Assembly: GCA_014436445.1 (NCBI GenBank)
Contig: GCA_014436445.1_4089.1
Length of the DNA stretch: 26,673 nucleotides
Strand: one strand, 5' to 3'
From: a phage
Part shown: piece after piece, positions 1,810-24,218 of the stretch
How positions within the stretch are numbered: the stretch's first letter is position 1
Layout of the letters: each line of letters begins with the position of its first letter
Translations under genes and position numbers: made by a program
The notes under the pieces: model-generated
Databases searched by the model: none
What the model was told of the DNA's origin: nothing
The model's input: only the letters and a program-made list of their open reading frames with translations

Positions 1810-2023
1810 TTTATATCTCGCTCTTTTGGAGGTGGGCTGCACTATTGCCGCCCTACGAGATACATTATCGCAGTACTGATATACTTTGTCAATACTTTTT
1901 TTGAAATAGTTTTGAGTACTGGCATTACATCCACCAGCAGATAGTTACTCACCGTTATTAACTATCTTATAGATACTTCTCTGCACCCTGTGGGCTAGTT
2001 TTTGTCTATGCGTATATAATAGC

Positions 2024-2056
2024 AAAGGGACTGACCGGAGTCAATCCCTTTTTTTT
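2024..2056 (-). terminator. intrinsic terminator hairpin that also contains a promoter -35 (composite repeat, copy 1 of 4)
   Basis: GGGACTGACCGGAGTCAATCCC stem-loop flanked by A and T runs directly after the stop of 2068..2268. On the minus strand the hairpin contains TTGACT, followed 17 nt later by TATTAT. Copies at 4283-4312, 7424-7453 and 11120-11148. Confidence 0.55.
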
Positions 2057-3795: not shown

Positions 3796-3878
3796 AATTT
3801 TGTTTCCTTTTATTGTGGGGAGAACTATTCTCCCCTTGATGTAAACTATTATACAGTACTGATATACTTTGTCAATAC

Positions 3879-4100: not shown

Positions 4101-4321
4101 GATTTTATTCCTTATTGCCAGGGAGAACCGTTTCCCCCTCTCGATATAAAACATTATACTTGATTCTAAGTACAATGCAAGTACTTTTTATCAAATAGTT
4201 TTCAGTACTGAATACTTATATAATATATACATTTATGCACCCTGTGGGTCAGTGAGCTATCTCTCAATGAATATATAATAGCAAAGGGACTGACCGGAGT
4301 CAATCCCTTTTTTAATCTTTT

Positions 4322-4906
4322 TTATCGTGTTATAGTTACGGCTTTTACATCACGCTTTTTATAGTACTGATTCCAGATATTGCGGGTTAAACCGTAATCA
4401 AGTACTTTAATAAGGCCGTTGCGATCCTGGCCGATATTCTGTTTTCTGATATCTCTTATCGTCAGTGTTGATAAGGTATCATCAACGTGTTGTAGTGCAT
4501 CAGCAAAGCGGTGCTGGCGTTCAATGGCATTACGTTTAATATTGTACTTTAATTCGTTGCACGCGTTAACGTGCTTTACACTGCCTTTACTTGCAGTACT
4601 CAACCGATCCATAACAATAAACATATTATCAGGATCGCTTAAATGCATATGCACTTTAGCGAAGAACTGTTTCAACTGAGGGCGGTCATAGTCTAAAAAA
4701 TTCCATACCCTACATTCTGTTTCATTTTGTTCTACACCCGCATCACAATTCGCGACCTTGATCACTAACCGATCATTTAAAGCGAATACAATACGGGAAG
4801 AACCCGCACCGATGATCTCCAGACCAGCTAACCGACAAGCTGAAAGGATCTCTTTGTTGGTTTCCATTTCTGACAGTGTACGGATGAATTTAGTATAATT
4901 ACGCAT
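4322..4906 (-). CDS. minimal protein-kinase-like protein (194 aa)
   Basis: Track ORF trimmed to the ATG at 4906 (AAGGAG Shine-Dalgarno). Motifs in order: glycine-rich loop IIGAGSSRIVF, beta3 lysine LVIKV, catalytic-loop-like IRDIRKQNIG (compare HRDLKPENI), DYG about 20 residues later (compare DFG). The protein ends soon after DYG. Confidence 0.55.
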   Translation of the reverse strand: MRNYTKFIRTLSEMETNKEILSACRLAGLEIIGAGSSRIVFALNDRLVIKVANCDAGVEQNETECRVWNFLDYDRPQLKQFFAKVHMHLSDPDNMFIVMDRLSTASKGSVKHVNACNELKYNIKRNAIERQHRFADALQHVDDTLSTLTIRDIRKQNIGQDRNGLIKVLDYGLTRNIWNQYYKKRDVKAVTITR

Positions 4907-4937
4907 TGTTTTATCTCCTTGAGTTAATGAAACTATA

Positions 4938-5180
4938 TTACAGTACTTTACTATCAATGGCAACTACTTTTTTAACACTTACAGCGTGAATCACTTCCTT
5001 AGTGTTTTTAGTACTGAATACTTTCGCTGTTCCTTGTTCTACTGCAATGCGATAACGACCGTTAACATCAACCATATTAATAAAGTCCGGTGTACTAAAC
5101 CGAGTAGTACGGCATTTCAGTACTGTTAACAGTTCCACCAGCGATGTAGTTTCTTTGATACGTTTTTCTAAAGTAATCAT
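4938..5180 (-). CDS. hypothetical protein (80 aa)
   Basis: Track ORF; second promoter class (TTGACAGTACTCAAATGTTTTAGTACTATG...) at 5195-5240, repeated at 5470-5520. Confidence 0.55.
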   Translation of the reverse strand: MITLEKRIKETTSLVELLTVLKCRTTRFSTPDFINMVDVNGRYRIAVEQGTAKVFSTKNTKEVIHAVSVKKVVAIDSKVL

Positions 5181-7281: not shown

Positions 7282-7462
7282 TAAAACATTATACTTGATT
7301 CTAAGTACAATGCAAGTACTTTTTAAAAATAGTTTTCAGTACTTGATAGTACTAGCCACCAGCATATAATAGATACATTTATGCACCCTGTGGGCTGATT
7401 TGTTTCTATGCGTATATAATAGCAAAGGGACTGACCGGAGTCAATCCCTTTTTTAAATCTTT

Positions 7463-9295: not shown

Positions 9296-9366
9296 GATCA
9301 AGATTTGATCAGAATTATACGCCTTATGCTAAATTGATCCAGTACTTTTTTGATCATTTATTGATC
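9296..9366. repeat. cluster of five TTGATC(A) repeats (five GATC sites in 71 bp)
   Basis: GATC at 9296, 9307, 9336, 9352 and 9363, each within a TTGATC heptamer context; roughly 20-fold denser than expected at this base composition. Confidence 0.6.
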
Positions 9367-9461
9367 GATATTATATAGTTACATTTGTGCACCCTATGGG
9401 TTAGTGACGTTCTCGTCTTGATGTAAGTATTATGCTAGTACTGGCATAATTTGTCAATAGA

Positions 9462-10928: not shown

Positions 10929-11157
10929 GATTCGTTTCCTTATTACCAGGGGAAACCGTTTCCCCTTGCGATGTAAAACATTATACGCCTATTGAGATAG
11001 TATGCAAGTACTTTTTATCAAATACTTTAAAATAGTTTTCTGTACTCAATCATTATACAATAGATACACTCCTGCACCCTGTGGGCTAGTGAGCTATCTC
11101 TCAATGAATATATAATAGCAAAATGGCTGACCGAAGTCAACCACTTTTTCATTTATT

Positions 11158-14103: not shown

Positions 14104-14330
14104 CTTTATATCCTCAGTTAGTTAAGGTGTTTCGCCTTGATGTAAAACATTATACGCTAATCTCTGAATCGTGCAAGTACTTTTTATTACTTTTTGCAAA
14201 ATACTTTAAACGCTCTAAATCGCATTCTAACGACCTTAACTCCACCAGCTAGGGCGATGCATCAGATAATCAGTTTAATGCGTTAGAATCGATTCTATGA
14301 GGTGCTGACGGCATGGAATACTATAGACAC

Positions 14331-14355
14331 AAAAAAGCCCACTGTATAAGTGGGC
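14331..14355 (-). terminator. intrinsic terminator
   Basis: GCCCACTTATACAGTGGGC stem followed by TTTTTT on the minus strand, directly after the stop of 14378..14860. Confidence 0.6.
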
Positions 14356-14377
14356 TAGTGATTCAGTACTTTAATTG

Positions 14378-14860
14378 TTATGCTTCAACTTTGCGGTGAG
14401 CTTCGATCCATTCCTCGCGAGTCATACCGCTTTCTTTGATTGCATCCAGTACTACCGCAATGCAGTTACCGCGTACAGGAATCAAATGTTCTTCCCCGTT
14501 ATCAAGGACAACCGTAACACGTTCTTGAATCCATTTTTTAGGCTTAGATTCCGGCTTATCTTCACCGTACTTAACCGCCAGGGCTTTATGTGCCATTTCA
14601 ATCACCACTTCCAGATCTAAACCAGACACCGCCGCCTGAATACTTTCTATTGTTGCTTGCAGTTCTGCTTCACGGGCTTTTTTCTGTTCTTCCAGTTCTG
14701 CTACCTTTTTGGCTTGTAGTTCTTTCGCTTCACTGTAAGCAATGTTAAAATTGTTGCGTACTGCTTTCATGGTATCATTATCCAGGTCAGCCAGCAATTC
14801 AGCAGCAATAACAGTATCGTTAGAAATCAGTGCTTTCAGAAATGATTTTACATTAGCCAT
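14378..14860 (-). CDS. hypothetical protein with a central coiled-coil-like segment (160 aa)
   Basis: Track ORF trimmed to the ATG at 14860 (GAGGA Shine-Dalgarno); the central KELQAKKVAELEEQKKAREAELQATIESIQ segment is heptad-like; promoter TTGACA, 16 nt, TAGAAT at about 14965-15000. Confidence 0.6.
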   Translation of the reverse strand: MANVKSFLKALISNDTVIAAELLADLDNDTMKAVRNNFNIAYSEAKELQAKKVAELEEQKKAREAELQATIESIQAAVSGLDLEVVIEMAHKALAVKYGEDKPESKPKKWIQERVTVVLDNGEEHLIPVRGNCIAVVLDAIKESGMTREEWIEAHRKVEA

Positions 14861-15516: not shown

Positions 15517-15545
15517 TTGACAACTGCATCCAGTACTGGCATAAT
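15517..15545 (+). promoter_or_regulatory. plus-strand sigma70-type promoter (TTGACA, 17 nt, CATAAT)
   Basis: Consensus -35, 17-nt spacer and CATAAT -10; no plus-strand ORF follows, only the CCCACAGGGTGCA leader motif and a hairpin. Confidence 0.5.
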
Positions 15546-15551
15546 ACTTAC

Positions 15552-15650
15552 ATAAAGACGAGATAGTCACTAACCCACAGGGTGCATAGATCCGTCTATT
15601 AAATGATTCAGTACAAAAAATATAAAGGGGATCAATTGATCCCCCTGGTT
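15552..15650 (+). ncRNA. candidate ~100-nt small RNA
   Basis: Predicted transcript from the 15517-15545 promoter, containing GAGATAGTCACTAACCCACAGGGTGCA and ending at the palindromic hairpin GGGGATCAATTGATCCCCC (15627-15645), which also terminates minus gene 15652..15873. Confidence 0.3.
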
Positions 15651-17597: not shown

Positions 17598-17752
17598 TAA
17601 AACATTATACGCCTTTAAACATAGTTGGCAAGTACTTTTTGAAAATAGTTTTTAGTACTTTCATATAGATACACTCCCGCACCCTATGGGCTATCGCCTA
17701 GTGTCCGGCTTGTAAGTATTATCTCACTAAGCCGGATAACTGTCAAGTACTT

Positions 17753-18798: not shown

Positions 18799-19116
18799 CG
18801 TTTTAATCTCTTTTAAAAGTGAGTCGGGAGCGTCTCCCCCGTCTCGATGTAAAACATTCTACACCTTTCCCAATACTTTGCAAGTACTTTCTACAAATAC
18901 TTTTAAAATAGTTTTCTTTCTATATAGGAGTACTGGAACAATCCAGGGAGAACAATCTTTCAGTACTGAATCATTAAGATACCCGTAAAACGGCCTCAAT
19001 CGCATTCTAACGCATTAATACACCTAAGCTATACATTTGCACCGCCACCAGCTAACCAGGGCTTTACGGGCCGTTTAAACGCGTTAAATTATTTTCAATT
19101 ATTTTGTTTTTAGCTA

Positions 19117-19144
19117 TTGACTCAGCACCGAAAAAGCGTATAAT
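19117..19144 (+). promoter_or_regulatory. plus-strand promoter (TTGACT, 16 nt, TATAAT)
   Basis: Consensus elements within the non-coding block; no ORF downstream. Confidence 0.45.
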
Positions 19145-19332
19145 TACTACATAGACGCGAGAAAGCGGATACCCCTGGGGGTGCGGAATTACGCCCAAAA
19201 TTCAGTAAATTTAAAAAGGATACACTCCCGCACCTTAGCAGGTCATAGCACTTTCTCAGTACTGAATCATAGTACCATAGTACGCCCCAGGATGGCAAGC
19301 AAATTAATTAAAACTTTTTGCGTTTAGGGTAT

Positions 19333-19360
19333 TGCTTTATTTTTTCAGTACTGCTATAAT
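19333..19360 (+). promoter_or_regulatory. plus-strand promoter (TTGCTT, 16 nt, TATAAT)
   Basis: Followed by GAGAAAGACTCTAGCCCACCGGGTGCATAA, i.e. the same leader motif as at 15552. Confidence 0.45.
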
Positions 19361-19457
19361 ATTTTCATCAAGTCGAGAAAGACTCTAGCCCACCGGGTGC
19401 ATAATTGTATCTAAAATTCAGTACTAGATTATTTTTTAAAATTATTCATCCAGGCGG

Positions 19458-19486
19458 TTGACATTGCCCCCAGTTTATTAGATAAT
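19458..19486 (+). promoter_or_regulatory. plus-strand promoter (TTGACA, 17 nt, GATAAT) reading toward the iteron array
   Basis: Consensus elements; downstream lie a GGGGAAACCATCCCC hairpin and the iteron-like array. Confidence 0.45.
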
Positions 19487-19580
19487 GATTCCAGATTCAG
19501 AAAAATCTAACTCCAGATACTGCGGGGAAACCATCCCCACGCGGTAGGGGAACTATTGGAAAAACAAAATAAAATTTTGA

Positions 19581-19712
19581 TTTAGCCGTCTATACTTCCA
19601 GACGTGTAACCATCTAGCCGTTTAGCCGTCCAAACGTCTAGCAGTACAGCCATCTAGAAATCTAGCCATCCAGCCGCCTAGAGGGATAGCCATCTTTACT
19701 TCCAGCCATCTG
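19581..19712. repeat. iteron-like array of about 8 YAGCCRTC octamers with interspersed GTCTAG/CATCTAG
   Basis: TTTAGCCGTC occurs exactly twice (19581, 19621); TAGCCGTT, CAGCCATC, TAGCCATC (twice), CAGCCGCC and CAGCCATC follow within about 130 bp of non-coding DNA. Confidence 0.55.
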
Positions 19713-19881
19713 GAGGTCTAGACATCTCTACGTCTAAATTTAACCTAGGGTTACTACGCCCAAAATCCGTCAGTACTATACCATAGATCTATCTTTAAGA
19801 AGGGAGTATTCAGTACTCCCACAATAGCCCTCACTGTTACTGTAGGAGGATGAAGACTATCATGTAGTACTGAATACTGTT

Positions 19882-19911
19882 AGTGGATAATCCACCAGCT
19901 TGTGCTGGTGG
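19882..19911. promoter_or_regulatory. DnaA-box-like 9-mer inside palindrome TGGATAATCCA, followed by hairpin CCACCAGCTTGTGCTGGTGG
   Basis: AGTGGATAA matches the DnaA box (TGTGGATAA, the complement of TTATCCACA) at 8 of 9 positions; an 8-bp-stem hairpin lies immediately 3'. Confidence 0.3.
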
Positions 19912-20398
19912 CATAATGCGTTAGATTAATATCAGTACTGCTACCATTCTGTTAATAACAGTACTGTTCATATTACGAAAAAAGAGGTTATAAAAAGATG
20001 TACCACCCATAGGAGGAACTATCCTTTCAGTACTGTCTCACGACAGGAGGTAGAGTGAATGAATTGTTTGCGGCAACTCATCTCTCTATGTAGAACATTA
20101 TACAGTACTGAATCATAATGTCAATAGCTTTCTTTCATTATTCAGTACTGAAATCGTATAATCTGTATCGCTACAAAACTCATTATATCCCACAAATCCT
20201 ATATGTCCCAACGTAAATTTCAACTTTCGAAGATCCAACTTTTATTTCATAGGTACTCCAAAATTTTTAGGATCGAGATTTAGGATGGAGTACTAACCAA
20301 CTTTTTGCTGGAGCCTCAAGGGGTAATTGAATTTTACCCCGAAGGGTAAAGGGGTAATTGAAATTAAGGTGAAAGTAATAATTCAGTACTAATCATTG

Positions 20399-20628
20399 CG
20401 TGATTACTTTTGATTACATTTGATGTAATTTGCAAAATGGAAAAGGAGCTTGGAAACTACAAAGTACGGCAGACTTCCTCTGCCTACTTAGTGGCATATC
20501 AGTACTGCTACGTTCTTGATTAAACGTGAACATTCCTGTACTCTAGTACTCAATACTAATCACTACCGTGCGTATGAATGATTACATAAATGTTTATATA
20601 TGATTACTTATGACTACCTATGATTACG
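20399..20628. repeat. two clusters of helically phased (A)TGATTAC repeats (20399-20428 and 20578-20628)
   Basis: GATTAC at 20401 and 20411 plus GATGTAAT at 20421; ATGATTAC at 20578, 20601 and 20621 plus ATGACTAC at 20611, with 10-bp spacing in the second cluster. Confidence 0.5.
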
Positions 20629-20743: not shown

Positions 20744-20944
20744 TTACTTCCTATATATAATCATTAAGATATAGTAGTACTGATTGTACTGTACATTCTC
20801 TTTAATATTATAAGGGTCTATAGCAATCTCGGTACATCTGTTAAATGCATATCTATTAAATGCCAGTGGAATTATAGATCTAATCCATACTTGTTCATTT
20901 TCTTTTAGTTTACTTATATAGAATTCTTTATGTTCTTTATTCAT
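20744..20944 (-). CDS. small-protein paralog array, member 15 (66 aa)
   Basis: Track ORF; N-terminus MNKEHKEFY, central Cys motif (NRCTEIAI), C-terminus YYILMIIYRK. Confidence 0.6.
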   Translation of the reverse strand: MNKEHKEFYISKLKENEQVWIRSIIPLAFNRYAFNRCTEIAIDPYNIKENVQYNQYYYILMIIYRK

Positions 20945-20949
20945 ATTAG

Positions 20950-21135
20950 TTAGTGTCTGTATATAAGTAATAGTAAGAATACGTACTGCACATCTTCATC
21001 TTTAGTATTGAGTACTGTACGTATTGCGTCATTAAACAAGAATATAGTACTTGGGTCATGAGAATTTAAAGGGGTTCTGGGTACGGCATGTTTGTAGTTC
21101 CCTTTAACAAATTGTGTGTAGTATTCTCTATGCAT
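20950..21135 (-). CDS. small-protein paralog array, member 14 (61 aa)
   Basis: Track ORF; MHREYYTQF...LLLLIYRH. Confidence 0.6.
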   Translation of the reverse strand: MHREYYTQFVKGNYKHAVPRTPLNSHDPSTIFLFNDAIRTVLNTKDEDVQYVFLLLLIYRH

Positions 21136-21136
21136 A

Positions 21137-21322
21137 TTAGTACCTATATATTAGGGCGAGAATGTAGTACAATTCATATGGAATGTAATTTGGGGTGATC
21201 GCACACTGTGTATGGTAAATGAATTGTTCGGTATTTTTCTTATCCTTGATATCTATTGGGATTTGTGGTATAAGCATTTGGGAGTTTAGATCGAGATGGC
21301 TTAAGTAGAATTCTTTATGCAT
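21137..21322 (-). CDS. small-protein paralog array, member 13 (61 aa)
   Basis: Track ORF; MHKEFYLSHL...QCAI...YYILALIYRY. Confidence 0.6.
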   Translation of the reverse strand: MHKEFYLSHLDLNSQMLIPQIPIDIKDKKNTEQFIYHTQCAITPNYIPYELYYILALIYRY

Positions 21323-21331
21323 ATTGTTCTC

Positions 21332-21520
21332 TTAGAATACGAAAGCTAGGTACAGGGTATGATACAGTACTCGATGATAGCTGTCAAAATCTAGTATACA
21401 TGCTTTAGTGCACATAGTAAAGTACACTTTATCATTTTGTGCATTGATACCGCGAGGTTTATCTAATAGATTAGTTCTGAGGTACATTGGGAAATATTTT
21501 GTGTAGTATTCTTTATGCAT
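21332..21520 (-). CDS. small-protein paralog array, member 12 (62 aa)
   Basis: Track ORF 21332..21565 trimmed to the family-conserved start MHKEYYTKYF at 21520; ends ...YHTLYLAFVF. Confidence 0.6.
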   Translation of the reverse strand: MHKEYYTKYFPMYLRTNLLDKPRGINAQNDKVYFTMCTKACILDFDSYHRVLYHTLYLAFVF

Positions 21521-21521
21521 G

Positions 21522-21704
21522 TTAGTACCTGAATATAAGTAGGATAGTGTTATATAGCTGGTCATAACTACTACTATTTTCTATACTTCGTTCTATGCAG
21601 TTATTGAATCCCAGTACTGCCAAATCGTTATCCATAGGGACTTTATATCTGGCGTAGTGTTCAAAAATGCTGGGGAGAAATTGTGTGTAGTATTCTTTGT
21701 GCAT
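21522..21704 (-). CDS. small-protein paralog array, member 11 (60 aa)
   Basis: Track ORF; MHKEYYTQFLP...NNCIERSI...ILLIFRY. Confidence 0.6.
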   Translation of the reverse strand: MHKEYYTQFLPSIFEHYARYKVPMDNDLAVLGFNNCIERSIENSSSYDQLYNTILLIFRY

Positions 21705-21705
21705 A

Positions 21706-21891
21706 TTAGTACCTATATATTAGTAAAAGGATGTGATACAGTACTCGATTATAGTCGTCAATATATATCGAGGATTTAGTGCACTGAATGAAGTAGTCTT
21801 TTTCGTAGTTTTTTTCTATACCCAATGGTTCTGTTGGTACAAGGTGTTGGAGATACATTGGGAGTTTCTCTATGTAGTATTCTTTATACAT
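21706..21891 (-). CDS. small-protein paralog array, member 10 (61 aa)
   Basis: Track ORF; MYKEYYIEKLPMYLQ...QCTKSSI...YHILLLIYRY. Confidence 0.6.
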   Translation of the reverse strand: MYKEYYIEKLPMYLQHLVPTEPLGIEKNYEKDYFIQCTKSSIYIDDYNRVLYHILLLIYRY

Positions 21892-21900
21892 ATATTATCC

Positions 21901-22101
21901 TTAGTACTGGAACGCAAGGTACAGGGTGTGGTAAAGTTGTACTTGATAATTGTTTTCATTAGCTTCTTCATTAAGTACTTGTTCAGTACATGTACGGAAG
22001 TAATCAGCTTCATATATACAGTCAATACCGCGAGGTTCATCTTCTAATAGATTTCCTTGTAGAAACTTTGGTAGTTCTTTTATGTAGAATTCTTTATACA
22101 T
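21901..22101 (-). CDS. small-protein paralog array, member 9 (66 aa)
   Basis: Track ORF 21901..22164 trimmed to the family-conserved start MYKEFYIKELPKFLQ at 22101; ...RTCTEQVL...YHTLYLAFQY. Confidence 0.6.
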   Translation of the reverse strand: MYKEFYIKELPKFLQGNLLEDEPRGIDCIYEADYFRTCTEQVLNEEANENNYQVQLYHTLYLAFQY

Positions 22102-22765
22102 AGTTTGTAATATACGTAATGAGGTGATGCATTTTCTTATCAGTACTGATAATTTCCTGTACATGTTTTGTCAGATTGTACGCGTTTTTATAGAGTACTG
22201 GATTATCGATTACAGTACTGTACATGAATAGTTCTTCTTCCTGTAGTTCTTTGTGTTCTAGTTCTTTGAGGAATTGTAGTACTGTATCAGTTTCTTCTGT
22301 ACGTTGTGCTTGCCAGAAGTGCATATTCTCGTGTACTTTTTCTGCATCAGTAGAGTATATGCCACCCATTTGGAATTGTGCTGTATTGACATCGTGGGAG
22401 GTGTTACAATTCCCGAAGAAGTATGTATTCCCGAAGTATAGCATTAAAGTGCACGGGGTATTATCCAACTGCATATTGATGATGAAGGATGCGTTCTTTA
22501 GTACCTTTGTGCTCGTATTAGTACTCAATACTTTTAAATCAGTATTATAGATATTCATATAATGAACAGCTATATTATTTTTCTTCATGTACAATTCAAG
22601 GTTCTTTGATACGTTAACTCCATTTGTACTGGATTTTTCCTTTTTATTTCGTTTCTTTAGTACATTCGGGTGATACGTATATGCAGATGTAACTGATTCT
22701 GCCTGAATACTATTGAGGTACTTAAAGTGCTTAAGGTATTGTTTGCTGTGTGCATTAAGTTTCAT
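22094..22765 (-). CDS. 223-aa protein with an HExxH motif, embedded in the paralog array
   Basis: Track ORF; AAGGAAA Shine-Dalgarno; contains AEKVHENMHFWQA (HExxH, the zincin metallopeptidase signature); does not share the array-family termini. Confidence 0.55.
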   Translation of the reverse strand: MKLNAHSKQYLKHFKYLNSIQAESVTSAYTYHPNVLKKRNKKEKSSTNGVNVSKNLELYMKKNNIAVHYMNIYNTDLKVLSTNTSTKVLKNASFIINMQLDNTPCTLMLYFGNTYFFGNCNTSHDVNTAQFQMGGIYSTDAEKVHENMHFWQAQRTEETDTVLQFLKELEHKELQEEELFMYSTVIDNPVLYKNAYNLTKHVQEIISTDKKMHHLITYITNYV

Positions 22766-22775
22766 TTGGTTTCCT

Positions 22776-22955
22776 TTATATAGATGCCAGGGCGAGGATT
22801 TCCCTGTAGGGATTATCTTGTGTTAGTACAGCATAAATGCAGTTATTGAGATTAATATTTTTAGTACTTTTTGTTCCTAGTTTGTAGTACTTCACGAAGG
22901 TGTCGTACATGAAACGGTCTTTTATGGTTATACGTTCTCTATAGAATTGTTGCAT
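22776..22955 (-). CDS. small-protein paralog array, member 7 (59 aa; MQQFYRERITIKDRFMYDTFVKYYKLGTKSTKNINLNNCIYAVLTQDNPYREILALASI)
   Basis: Not in the track (59 aa). AAGGAA Shine-Dalgarno; central NNCIYAVL and C-terminal ILALASI fit the family. Confidence 0.5.
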   Translation of the reverse strand: MQQFYRERITIKDRFMYDTFVKYYKLGTKSTKNINLNNCIYAVLTQDNPYREILALASI

Positions 22956-22963
22956 AGTATTCC

Positions 22964-23146
22964 TTAAATAGCGATTAGTTTCATTACTTCTCTGTATGTG
23001 TACTTTTCGTTTTGTGCATCTCTTGTGACGACATATAGGAAGGTGTGTTTATCTTTTTTGTTCCCGCAATTGTAGAAAATATTGAACTTATTGAAGTTGA
23101 ATCTTTCGGCGTGTTGTAGTTTAGTTAAATAGAATTCTATATTCAT
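22964..23146 (-). CDS. small-protein paralog array, member 6 (60 aa)
   Basis: Track ORF; MNIEFYLTKL...YNCGN...MKLIAI. Confidence 0.55.
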   Translation of the reverse strand: MNIEFYLTKLQHAERFNFNKFNIFYNCGNKKDKHTFLYVVTRDAQNEKYTYREVMKLIAI

Positions 23147-23154
23147 TTTCTTCC

Positions 23155-23340
23155 TTACATTTCAATAAGTTTAAGTACTGCTCGGTACGTGTACTTAGTT
23201 GTTAGTGCTTCTTTAATAGAAATACAGAAGTAATGTTGTTTGTCTCTTATACTGCCGCGTTTGTAGTACCACACATGGGAGTTGTGACTGTACTTGTCTC
23301 TGTCGGATAGTTGTTGGTAGTAGTAGCTTATATGATTCAT
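23155..23340 (-). CDS. small-protein paralog array, member 5 (61 aa)
   Basis: Track ORF; MNHISYYYQQL...FCISIKEAL...LKLIEM. Confidence 0.55.
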   Translation of the reverse strand: MNHISYYYQQLSDRDKYSHNSHVWYYKRGSIRDKQHYFCISIKEALTTKYTYRAVLKLIEM

Positions 23341-23392
23341 TATAATGTAATTAGCCTTACTATATTAAAGTACTCGGTCCCTGGTGTACCTT

Positions 23393-23587
23393 TTAGAACT
23401 TAAAGATGAGGTTCAGGATAGAGCGGTACTTAGTTGCAGGGAACGTATGTTCTATTGCATAACGTGTCACCATCCTGAAATCGTAATTATAATACAGATT
23501 ATCCTTTCTCATAGGTGGTGCTAAAGAGAATGATAGCTGTTCTTGTTTGGGTAGTTTACTACAATAGAAATCTTTATGATTATTCAT
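23393..23587 (-). CDS. small-protein paralog array, member 4 (64 aa)
   Basis: Track ORF; MNNHKDFYCSKLPKQEQ...ILNLIFKF. Confidence 0.55.
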   Translation of the reverse strand: MNNHKDFYCSKLPKQEQLSFSLAPPMRKDNLYYNYDFRMVTRYAIEHTFPATKYRSILNLIFKF

Positions 23588-23789
23588 AGAAATATATTAG
23601 TCCTATTAAACCAGAGTACATAATATTTTTGTTATTACATTCGATTGCTTCTAGAGTACTACGTATACAATTATTAAAGCAATCTCTGGCGTGTGGTGTA
23701 TCTATACTTAAAGGTGATACACTCCTTAGAAACAATTGTTCTTCGTTGCTAAGGTATTTGGTGTAGAATTCTTTATGTTCAGTATTCAT
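23580..23789 (-). CDS. small-protein paralog array, member 3 (69 aa)
   Basis: Track ORF; MNTEHKEFYTKYLSNEEQ...NNCIRSTL...LIGLIYFYE; 8-nt overlap with member 4. Confidence 0.6.
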   Translation of the reverse strand: MNTEHKEFYTKYLSNEEQLFLRSVSPLSIDTPHARDCFNNCIRSTLEAIECNNKNIMYSGLIGLIYFYE

Positions 23790-23790
23790 A

Positions 23791-23994
23791 TTAGTACTCG
23801 ATTAAAAGGGCAAGGATATAATAGTATTGCATACTTTCTGCCCCTTGTAAAGCATTTCTTATGATATTATTCCTGTACGAGTTCAGGAGTTTAGGACAAC
23901 GTTTGTAGTGTATAATAGTATTTTGTGTATACAGTAGGCTTTCTCGTAGACCTTTTGTTGGTAGTGCATCGATGTAGTACTGTTCGATATTCAT
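23791..23994 (-). CDS. small-protein paralog array, member 2 (67 aa)
   Basis: Track ORF; MNIEQYYIDALP...YYILALLIEY. Confidence 0.6.
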   Translation of the reverse strand: MNIEQYYIDALPTKGLRESLLYTQNTIIHYKRCPKLLNSYRNNIIRNALQGAESMQYYYILALLIEY

Positions 23995-24218
23995 ATAGAT
24001 AGCAGTACTAAGATTTTTGATAATTGTTTATTGCTATCCCCGCAGATGTTGCTGTGTAAAATACTCACAATGAGGGTATCAATTGCATTGTTCATCATAA
24101 GGGTGCATCCTGGACTATTATAATTTTTTAGCTCAATTAGCCACGAACTATCCGAGAGAAACTCCCCGTACTCTAGTTCATTTAGAGTATTGAGGTAGTA
24201 CTTAAGAGTATTTGTCAT
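23991..24218 (-). CDS. small-protein paralog array, member 1 (75 aa), first gene after the array promoter
   Basis: Track ORF; AAGGAG Shine-Dalgarno; MTNTLKYYLNTL...PGCTLMMNNAI...ILVLLSI. Confidence 0.55.
   Translation of the reverse strand: MTNTLKYYLNTLNELEYGEFLSDSSWLIELKNYNSPGCTLMMNNAIDTLIVSILHSNICGDSNKQLSKILVLLSI

Follow-up and report, generated by a model that had tools for sequence, protein, structure and literature searches.

A promoter-proximal 12-base motif in the terminal repeat of Rak2-like jumbo phages, possible core of a short, early non-coding RNA family

Rak2-like jumbo phages are candidates for therapy, and their early program consists almost entirely of "hypothetical proteins." We analyzed a 26,673-nucleotide stretch of phage DNA (the window; GenBank assembly GCA_014436445.1) in which the 12-base motif CCCAYNGGGTGC recurs downstream of promoters. 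Is this motif a site on the DNA, a leader of the genes that lie nearby, or a part of an RNA that has a role of its own?

Motif copies in the window

Asteriusvirus-type jumbo coliphages (121Q, PBECO4, G17, phAPEC6, and others) match the window patchily at about 89–95% identity, and no matching record is collinear with it throughout. The region is mosaic, with relatives covering 43–81% of it in 3–20 pieces. One relative, vB_Ec-M-J, has a direct terminal repeat (DTR) annotated at 1–21,525, the initial 1.7 kb of which is gene-free, and its position 1 maps to about 20,498 of the window in reverse orientation. Judged by this annotation and this mapping, the window is most of a ≈21-kb DTR, extending leftwards from ≈20.5 kb, together with ≈6 kb of abutting unique sequence. 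The listed open reading frames (ORFs) are mostly small and mostly on the minus strand, and the few recognizable products are a GNAT acetyltransferase, a DksA/TraR zinc-finger protein, and an RCC1-like protein. The G17 annotation carries three "terminator" features somewhere within the stretch homologous to the window.

The window holds nine copies of the motif and one degenerate copy. A 13-mer form, CCCACAGGGTGCA, has eight matches at up to two mismatches compared with 0.21 expected from shuffles, and the relaxed core CCCNNNGGGTGC has nine, all exact, compared with 1.09 expected. Minus-strand copies lie at 1983, 4237, 7383, 9389, 11074, and 17679 and plus-strand copies at 15574, 19173, and 19389. 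Each of the nine has a sigma70-like promoter upstream, always in the sense orientation, with the −10 box 20–31 nt away. An earlier note on this DNA had proposed a promoter-proximal element rather than a chance repeat, and the motif is indeed orientation-locked to transcription and far above shuffle expectation.

Four minus-strand copies belong to composites with a hairpin. Described before as near-identical, these ≈80-nt composites are 71–88% identical, and their similarity spans 100–240 nt, running into the next promoter. Each does follow a gene stop, within ≈17 nt of the ORF ends at 2068, 4322, 7463 (49 aa), and 11149 (45 aa), all on the minus strand. As had also been noticed, TTGACT lies within the hairpin in all four, in its 5' arm, and is followed by a 17-nt spacer and TATTAT. 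The 22-nt hairpin GGGATTGACTCCGGTCAGTCCC is exact at 2027, 4286, and 7427, and the fourth is the variant GTGGTTGACTTCGGTCAGCCAT at 11120–11147; folding gives 12 pairs and −17 to −20 kcal/mol around a UNCG loop (UCCG or UUCG). The first composite (1957–2056) places its hairpin at 2051–2024, the embedded −35 TTGACT at 2044–2039, and the −10 TATTAT at 2021–2016, followed by a leader domain at 2018–1957 with the motif at 1994–1983 (62 bits, E = 1.8e-12 with a covariance model built from 64 copies). Its counterpart at 4211–4312 has the hairpin at 4310–4283, the −35 at 4303–4298, the −10 at 4280–4275, and the motif at 4248–4237. There the transcript would begin with the 5' hairpin UGAG-AGAUAG-CUCA, and ≈50 nt further on comes a second promoter (TTGCAT-N17-TATAAT), with a ribosome-binding site (RBS) and ATG behind it. 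The third (7357–7453; hairpin 7451–7424, −35 7444–7439, −10 7421–7416, motif 7394–7383) is separated from the first gene by two more promoters. In the fourth (11048–11148), the variant hairpin with its UUCG loop occupies 11147–11120, the −35 11140–11135, the −10 11117–11112, and the motif 11085–11074. The GAGA.AG segment that the earlier note called conserved exists as loop and stem of the 5' hairpin, and only two of the four composites have it.

On the gene strand, the composite hairpin is followed by TTTGCTATTAT, and on the opposite strand by a run of eight T. This run gives the hairpin the appearance of a bidirectional terminator. Promoters embedded in hairpins of this design, but lacking the motif, precede ordinary genes outside the DTR in 121Q and EC22.5-2; hairpin-promoter and motif domain are therefore separate modules. 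No terminator lies between the motif domain and the next promoter in the four window composites, so that the domain there would be the start of a long mRNA leader.

The claim that the motif also follows independent promoters in both orientations stands for five further copies on either strand; one of the positions named with that claim, 19228, proved to be the degenerate convergent partner of one of them. Copy 5 (minus strand, 9363–9457) has a plain promoter without an embedded hairpin (TTGACA-17-CATAAT, 9457–9429), the 5' hairpin GACG-AGAA-CGUC, and the motif as CCCATAGGGTGC at 9400–9389. Copy 7 (minus strand, 17653–17746) has the same motif form, CCCATAGGGTGC, at 17690–17679, behind the promoter TTGACA-17-GATAAT (17746–17718) and the 5' hairpin GCC-GGACACUA-GGC, and two more promoters follow it. 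Copy 6 (plus strand, 15517–15644) is a stand-alone unit with its promoter at 15517–15545, leader domain at 15549–15611, and motif at 15574–15585. It is antisense to the gene strand, has no ORF after it, and is aimed into the hairpin that ends the convergent operon (GGGGATC-AATT-GATCCCC, 15627–15644), which the two share and which has a poor U-tract on the plus strand.

The last two copies are on the plus strand, in the ORF-free genome end, and point outward. Copy 8 (19117–19241; promoter 19117–19144, motif CCCTGGGGGTGC at 19173–19184) lies ≈1.3 kb from the inferred genome end and has a degenerate convergent twin on the minus strand 57–58 bp away. This partner, GCACCTTAGCAG at 19230–19241, reads CTGCTAAGGTGC in minus-strand sense; the covariance model did not detect it in the window. 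Copy 9 (19332–19426) is ≈1.1 kb from the inferred genome end and is directed into an ORF-free region, with the promoter TTGCTT-17-TATAAT at 19332–19360, the 5' hairpin AGUC-GAGAAA-GACU, and the motif CCCACCGGGTGC at 19389–19400.

Gene context and distribution across the clade

The window contains 36 strong sigma70 matches, and for ≈33 the strand is the one transcribed in that neighborhood. Only nine of the 36 carry the motif, which is thus no leader of early promoters generally. About 24 motif-less strong promoters reach an RBS and start codon within 30–55 nt, and their leaders often carry a conserved 5' hairpin, ACAUCAAGGGGAGAAUAGUUCUCCCC, present at no fewer than eight gene-proximal promoters. 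An RBS and ATG within 75 nt follow none of the nine motif-bearing promoters, and copies 1–5 and 7 have one or two more promoters before the gene. The motif is almost never part of a gene's 5' UTR and instead forms a separate non-coding unit in front of a promoter, a convergent twin, or a hairpin. Copies may be co-directional with genes, antisense to them, or twinned. Since orientation relative to genes varies in this way, the downstream gene is not what is conserved.

Related phages have the same arrangement. Among 92 distinct copies, the next feature is a convergent twin in 27, a promoter in 25, a hairpin in 11, and none of these in 29; a single copy runs directly into an RBS and ATG. In the 11 with a hairpin, a GC-rich stem with a U-rich tail stands at a constant ≈40 nt, and loci in RaK2 (e.g. 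L012 9801 and 2733) are clean promoter-to-terminator units of ≈100 nt. As for the features of a terminator-defined gene for a small RNA of ≈50–300 nt, all copies have their own promoter and no ORF, 11 of 92 have the hairpin and U-tail, and the U-tract of copy 6 is poor. Twins are spaced at 57–58 bp in 12 of 17 loci. The two RNAs predicted at a twin locus are fully complementary, the motif would be buried in a 12–16-bp stem of each, and in a read-through RNA, the motif would fold against its complement (−30 to −50 kcal/mol).

The genome-wide search that had been suggested was made in the whole genome of the relative EC22.5-2 (352 kb), where the degenerate core occurs seven times, all at 30.8–49.6 kb. 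The covariance model gave 10 full matches in this same interval and one partial match, so that all 10–11 fall within 19 kb; the remaining 300 kb had no significant match. When viral contigs were scanned by pattern, genuine copies turned up in 121Q, RaK2, GAP32, CBB, and several further contigs of 354–366 kb, along with chance matches in unrelated contigs that had no promoter. BLAST with one 59-nt copy hit 64 phage records, all Rak2-like, in 1–14 places each. Their hosts are Escherichia, Klebsiella, Salmonella, Erwinia, Pectobacterium, Cronobacter, and Serratia, and wherever the terminal repeat is annotated in these records, the best match lies inside it. Across phages of these seven host genera, the 12-mer is invariant though the flanks have diverged, which argues against a mere by-product of recent duplication.

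None of the 64 records annotates the element. Several records call ORFs across it. No enterobacterial counterpart was found in 185,579 genomes (one per bacterial species), where 27 matches compare with our own chance estimate of ≈35. In Rfam 15, no family reached its gathering threshold: the whole window at E ≤ 1 gave only a sub-threshold Trp_leader match elsewhere in the window, and two stand-alone units gave only sub-threshold matches, most of which overlap the terminator hairpin by position. The 12-mer appeared in the searched literature only incidentally, in unrelated papers, and the genome papers of CBB, RaK2, Sharanji, and PA5oct do not describe the element. That literature contained no published expression data for the Rak2-like clade, and for this reason we infer the transcript ends given here. 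The element is clade-wide, DTR-restricted, unannotated, and non-coding. It is also apparently undescribed, the RNA domain having no described relative in the searched literature and Rfam.

Anatomy and pairing of the leader domain

To describe the domain, we used a related-phage set of 93 motif copies, 74 of them distinct. The end of the −10 box lies 20–31 nt from the motif in 90 of the 93 and 35 nt away in the other three, with modes at 21 and 26–28 nt. Between the predicted start and the motif there is usually a 3–5-bp hairpin with a purine- or A-rich loop (AGAACAA, AGAUAA, GCGAAA, GAGAAA), and a short class of copies has only an A-rich tract in its place. At least 13 different complementary stems occur in this hairpin, and its mean folding energy is −3.05 kcal/mol compared with −1.20 for shuffles. 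Its covariation is documented sequence by sequence rather than by column counts. MAFFT could not align its variable length, and the covariance model for this reason comprises only a helix of the core, GGGUG:YRYCY.

A linker of 3–4 nt (CUAA, UUAG, or UUGA) leads into the core, in which CCC, GGG, U, G, and C are invariant in 64 aligned copies; an A is present in ≥90%, and the next two bases are variable. Model matches that depart from the exact pattern have 4-nt middles (UCAA, UAGA, UAUA, AUUA, GUAA), and two loci in different phages show the double change CCU...AGG. For the helix R-CCC/GGG-U, 97.8% of cells are paired; its outer pair alternates between A-U and G-U, and the loop of this mini-hairpin has 3 or 4 nt of any sequence. 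Downstream of the core come five variable bases, a U (≥90%), and (G)YRYCY, which pairs with GGGUG(C) at five or more of six positions in 72 of the 74 distinct copies, the 6-nt loop being fixed in 64. For GGGUG:YRYCY, 89% of cells are paired, as against 33–67% with the partner strand slid out of register. Departures of YRYCY from the commonest pair, counted over the five inner positions, preserve pairing in 61 cases and break it in 14, and most are G-C/G-U or U-A/U-G transitions. Where orthologous copies differ, as judged by reading their sequences, the differences are in the three loops.

The two core helices are mutually exclusive because both use GGGU. In the Boltzmann ensemble, the CCC/GGG hairpin is favored in 43 of 74 copies and GGGUG:YRYCY in 12. 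As the 5' strand, the 12-mer, is invariant, neither helix is open to proof by two-sided covariation; what speaks for them is compatibility, tolerance of loop length, and the two double changes.

Several other ideas about the sequence were dropped. A coding reading does not fit, with CCC, GGG, and TGC invariant, no third-position wobble, variation confined to two adjacent bases, and no consistent start codon. Folds of single sequences had suggested long-range pairing. Pairing of the 5' end or 5' hairpin with a UCUAU-type 3' segment is no stronger between a copy's own halves (duplex energy −4.55) than between mismatched ones (−4.48; permutation p = 0.36), and copies with AGAACAA or GCGAAA loops still keep the GUAUCU to which an AGAUAA loop might have paired. 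A mutual-information scan found no partner for the two variable motif positions. A DnaA box needs CACA, which the AUA and AUU variants lose; MazF needs ACA, which is present in only 42 of 93 copies; and a CsrA site, which needs GGA, was dropped after comparison with variant copies, as were a type I-E/I-F CRISPR repeat mimic, the T7 class II terminator ATCTGTT, and a MotA box.

Explanations and relation to known systems

The motif probably works at the level of RNA or of the nascent transcript. We favor an RNA function over a DNA site or a gene leader because of the sense orientation, the non-coding context, the independence of gene orientation, and the RNA-type variation. The earlier note had left the choice between an operator and a transcript 5' end; the data favor the 5' end, and the loop-length differences and pairing-keeping variation disfavor the operator.

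The explanation we tentatively place first, at somewhat less than an even chance, is a family of short non-coding RNAs, made early and acting in trans, that have the motif in a common 5' domain. The motif would then be the invariant core of a structured 5' domain of ≈45–50 nt in these paralogous transcripts. Each DTR has ≈10 copies, and as the DTR stands at both ends, a packaged genome presumably has twice that number. Host sigma70 RNA polymerase would start at the near-consensus promoters, presumably early if the repeat end enters the cell first. The resulting RNA would open with the small A-rich-loop hairpin or, in some copies, an unstructured A-rich tract, and would continue through a 3–4-nt linker, R-CCC-(3–4-nt loop)-GGG-U, GC, five variable nt, U, and a YRYCY strand that may offer alternative pairing to GGGUG. 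Its end would lie at the hairpin ≈40 nt on, or in a convergent twin, or it would continue across the next gene's own promoter. The RNA would most likely be the product itself, a protein-binding or RNA-pairing module shielded by its 5' hairpin. The predicted burial of the motif in the twin RNAs is awkward for a trans-acting recognition element. If the element acts as RNA, it would add a new family, one to be considered for Rfam, to the non-coding RNAs of phages, and it might be a novel means of managing the host as infection begins.

The strongest rival, which we consider doubtful, is elongation control in cis. Here the nascent hairpin and the GGGUGC...U/G core would be a promoter-proximal pause or a signal for factor loading or antitermination, by analogy with ops/RfaH, lambda nut, or HK022 put, polymerases so marked would treat the hairpin terminators of the DTR differently, and twins would form a head-to-head barrier. 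The distance from element to start, fixed in every copy, suits this idea, and four window copies start right at a terminator hairpin, in a region where such hairpins are the main terminators. The elemental-pause skeleton is G−11 G−10 N8 Y−1 G+1, and the core fits it with G35, G36, U45 (≥90% U), and G46, the +1 position, at which only 58% of copies have G. A pause at Y47 would put the end of the mini-hairpin 11 nt upstream, the geometry of the his pause, and two polymerases paused head-on would touch at roughly the 57–58 bp that separate twins. Against processive antitermination stand the convergent twins, ≈30% of copies, and the 11 copies with their own terminator and nothing beyond. Downstream genes have strong promoters of their own. 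The element contains neither a boxA nor a GNRA-like boxB loop nor an ops consensus, and the bases that N-type proteins read, those of the loop, are here the ones that vary. Should the element act on polymerase after all, it would join the known pausing and antitermination signals as a new one.

A further reading of the RNA, rather unlikely in our view, is a multi-copy aptamer or decoy family (≈10 genes per DTR) that would titrate or redirect a host protein. Near-consensus host promoters would fire once the DNA is inside the cell, and the target might be an RNA-metabolism factor, RNA polymerase, or an RNA-sensing defense protein. The 57-bp twins would be a special form, either a hairpin or double-stranded RNA version or two polymerases parked head-on. 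Such a family would amount to a clade-wide RNA-based host-takeover device in giant phages.

We regard a DNA operator as improbable. A phage or host protein bound to CCCnnnGGGTGC at +20 to +32 would block the promoters, for instance after the early phase, with twin loci as paired sites. An invariant 12-mer suits sequence-specific recognition by a protein, CCCnnnGGG is a short palindrome, twins are inverted repeats at fixed spacing, and a spot just downstream of the start is a workable roadblock. However, only nine of ≈33 early promoters carry the motif, and its orientation is strictly locked to transcription though most sites are single. The CCC–GGG spacer is 3 or 4 bp, and most changes in the YRYCY strand are transitions after which G-U or G-C pairs can still form (61 preserving, 14 not). 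The adjoining 5' hairpin covaries, and the CCU...AGG double changes occur at two loci in different phages.

Also quite improbable is a cassette for stability or processing of mRNA 5' ends, in which the 5' hairpin would protect, the core would be an endonuclease site, and together they would set the fate of long early read-through transcripts. 5' hairpins are general in the leaders of this region, at least eight gene-proximal promoters having ACAUCAAGGGGAGAAUAGUUCUCCCC, and GGAG, the target of T4 RegB, is frequent in the loop after GGGUGC. Yet stand-alone and twin copies have no mRNA to stabilize, many coliphage copies have AUAAAU instead of GGAG, and downstream genes bring their own promoter and 5' hairpin. 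Least probable is a functionless recombination module, its copies kept alike by PeSL-type shuffling and by gene conversion between promoter-terminator repeats. In favor of it, relatives cover just 43–81% of this mosaic region, in pieces, similarity among window copies spans 100–240 nt, and PeSL elements are proposed as shuffling mediators (PMC2839356, PMC4122927). But homogenization would conserve whole blocks, unlike a 12-mer plus pairing potential, and across genera the flanks are fully diverged where the 12-mer, promoter distance, and pairing pattern are kept.

The element, defined by the 12-mer and its geometry, is a compact handle on the early program. It marks a distinct class of early unit in the terminal repeat, with conservation reaching from phages of Escherichia to those of Erwinia. 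Whether it acts as RNA or on polymerase, it improves annotation, since ORFs are called across it in several records.

Phage antitermination sites are one point of comparison. Like lambda nut (boxA/boxB) and HK022 put, the element is promoter-proximal and transcribed, combines small stem-loops with a conserved segment, and sits in a terminator-rich phage early region. Unlike them, it has variable loops, no boxA (the motif alignment contains no boxA-like segment), no GNRA-like pentaloop, and often nothing downstream to antiterminate. HK022 put RNA, of ≈70 nt with two stem-loops, lets polymerase read through terminators in cis without a protein; our domain also has two small stem-loops, though it measures ≈45 nt.

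The ops element GGCGGTAGNNTG, the loading site of RfaH in the leader of a long operon, is likewise a 12-nt leader element with a GG...N8...UG skeleton and a small hairpin possible in the same stretch. The core here is CCCAYNGGGTGC(N5)TG, however, and only the GG-N8-YG skeleton is common to both; moreover, its conservation reaches further upstream (CCCA), and it exists in several copies, also in gene-less units.

Sibling small RNA families such as OmrA/B and Qrr share a 5' region and have a Rho-independent terminator. The units described here resemble them as paralogous, short, and non-coding, with strong promoters of their own, a conserved 5' segment, and a variable remainder, and some end in a hairpin and U-tail ≈100 nt from the start. 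Most copies differ in having no clean terminator, and the conserved segment is predicted to be largely paired, with no open seed. Highly transcribed ncRNAs have been reported in the terminal repeat of PA5oct, a Pseudomonas jumbo phage described as related to 121Q/PBECO4/RaK2 (PMC7318152). These are 236–451 nt long, reported without known promoters, and similar only to the near-identical isolate MIJ3 (PMC7318152). By these descriptions, both sets are non-coding units in a DTR.

For the hairpin-promoter, a parallel exists in the promoter-early stem-loop (PeSL) cassettes of T4-type phages (Arbiol et al. 2010, PMC2839356; Comeau et al. 2014, PMC4122927). There, a near-consensus early promoter is immediately preceded by a stem-loop, and the RBS and start codon of the downstream gene close the cassette (PMC2839356). 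Both systems join a stem-loop or terminator to a near-consensus sigma70 early promoter, repeat it among small ORFan genes in a plastic mosaic region, and place an A-tract upstream and a T-tract downstream of the stem. In PeSL, the −35 lies downstream of the stem, whereas here, the −35 hexamer is inside the 5' arm of the hairpin. Motif-bearing copies end in a conserved non-coding RNA domain and a second promoter rather than an RBS and start codon, an ending that the motif-less hairpin-promoters outside the DTR do have; no counterpart of the 12-mer was found in the consulted portions of PMC2839356. On this comparison, the hairpin-promoter is a fused variant of the T4-type PeSL cassette, and the motif domain is an addition to it. 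T4-type promoter-terminator cassettes thus exist in the Rak2-like clade, in fused form.

Promoters and twin units in related genomes

Promoters whose -35 box lies inside the 5' arm of a terminator-like hairpin (AAAGGGTTGACTTCGGTCAGCCCTTTTT-GCTATAAT) are also found upstream of ordinary genes, far outside the direct terminal repeat (DTR) and without the leader motif, the invariant 12-mer that follows sigma70-type promoters in the window. Examples occur at 101-113 kb of 121Q and, in the relative EC22.5-2, at positions 40683 and 45685 of L008 and 1664 of L009. We also compared the spacing of convergent twins, pairs of leader-motif units on opposite strands, and found that it is conserved across genera, measuring 57-58 bp in 12 of 17 loci (for instance 38610/38667 in 121Q, and 114/171, 3549/3606, 8803/8860 and 565/622 in related loci L030, L036, L026 and L053, respectively) and 68 or 75-76 bp in the remainder.

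An extended leader-motif pattern additionally matched, by pattern alone, about ten contigs of Sulfurovum and other Campylobacterota, the Sulfurovum genomes being L060, L062, L063, L065, L068 and L072-L075; an unrelated sequence conserved within Sulfurovum would account for the clustering.

Other repeated elements

A second repeated non-coding unit of ~90 nt (ACAUCAGGACGGGGAACGAAA...CUCCCCUGAUAAAAUAG; folding energy -20 to -22 kcal/mol) lies on the minus strand at 7290-7195 and 17598-17510, where it carries its own promoter and is positioned between a leader-motif unit and a gene promoter. At least eight gene-proximal promoters in the window, including those at 3842, 8145, 8418, 10539, 10974, 15449 and 18388 on the minus strand, share a 5' leader hairpin, ACAU(C/G)AAGGGGAGAAUAGUUCUCCCC, which immediately precedes the ribosome-binding site and is probably a 5' stabiliser.

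The palindrome AGTACT is over-represented approximately ten-fold in the window and the EC22.5-2 genome (L002-L009), with densities of 5.7 per kb (153 sites) and 2.6 per kb over 352 kb, respectively; four other AT-balanced hexamer palindromes occur at 0.16-1.1 per kb, and a fifth, AGCGCT, is absent. Many promoter spacers contain AGTACT immediately upstream of the -10 box; further copies follow the leader motif at a distance of 15-25 nt or occur in pairs able to form hairpins.

Matches below threshold on the minus strand of the window include the Rfam tryptophan operon leader at 14329-14393 (E = 0.035; 29 bits, where the gathering score is 41) and a weak protein-kinase domain match in a 213-aa ORF at 4322-4963 (17.9 bits versus a cutoff of 31.7, E = 0.002).

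Left genome end and adjoining ORF array

The left genome end (~18800-20500) is devoid of ORFs, with its physical terminus inferred at ~20498. In or near this region are degenerate 8/16/32-bp TAGCCATC-type repeats (19647-19736) and TGATTAC-type 10-mers (20401-20424 and 20599-20627), and the sign of the GC skew reverses at ~20.7 kb. Directly adjoining the inferred DTR end, on its outer side, at least 12 minus-strand ORFs of ~60 aa form a paralogous array (20744-24218); their products carry M(H/N)KE(Y/F)Y at the N-terminus and ...L.LIYR(Y/H) at the C-terminus. The equivalent array in the 121Q record is annotated as hypothetical proteins.
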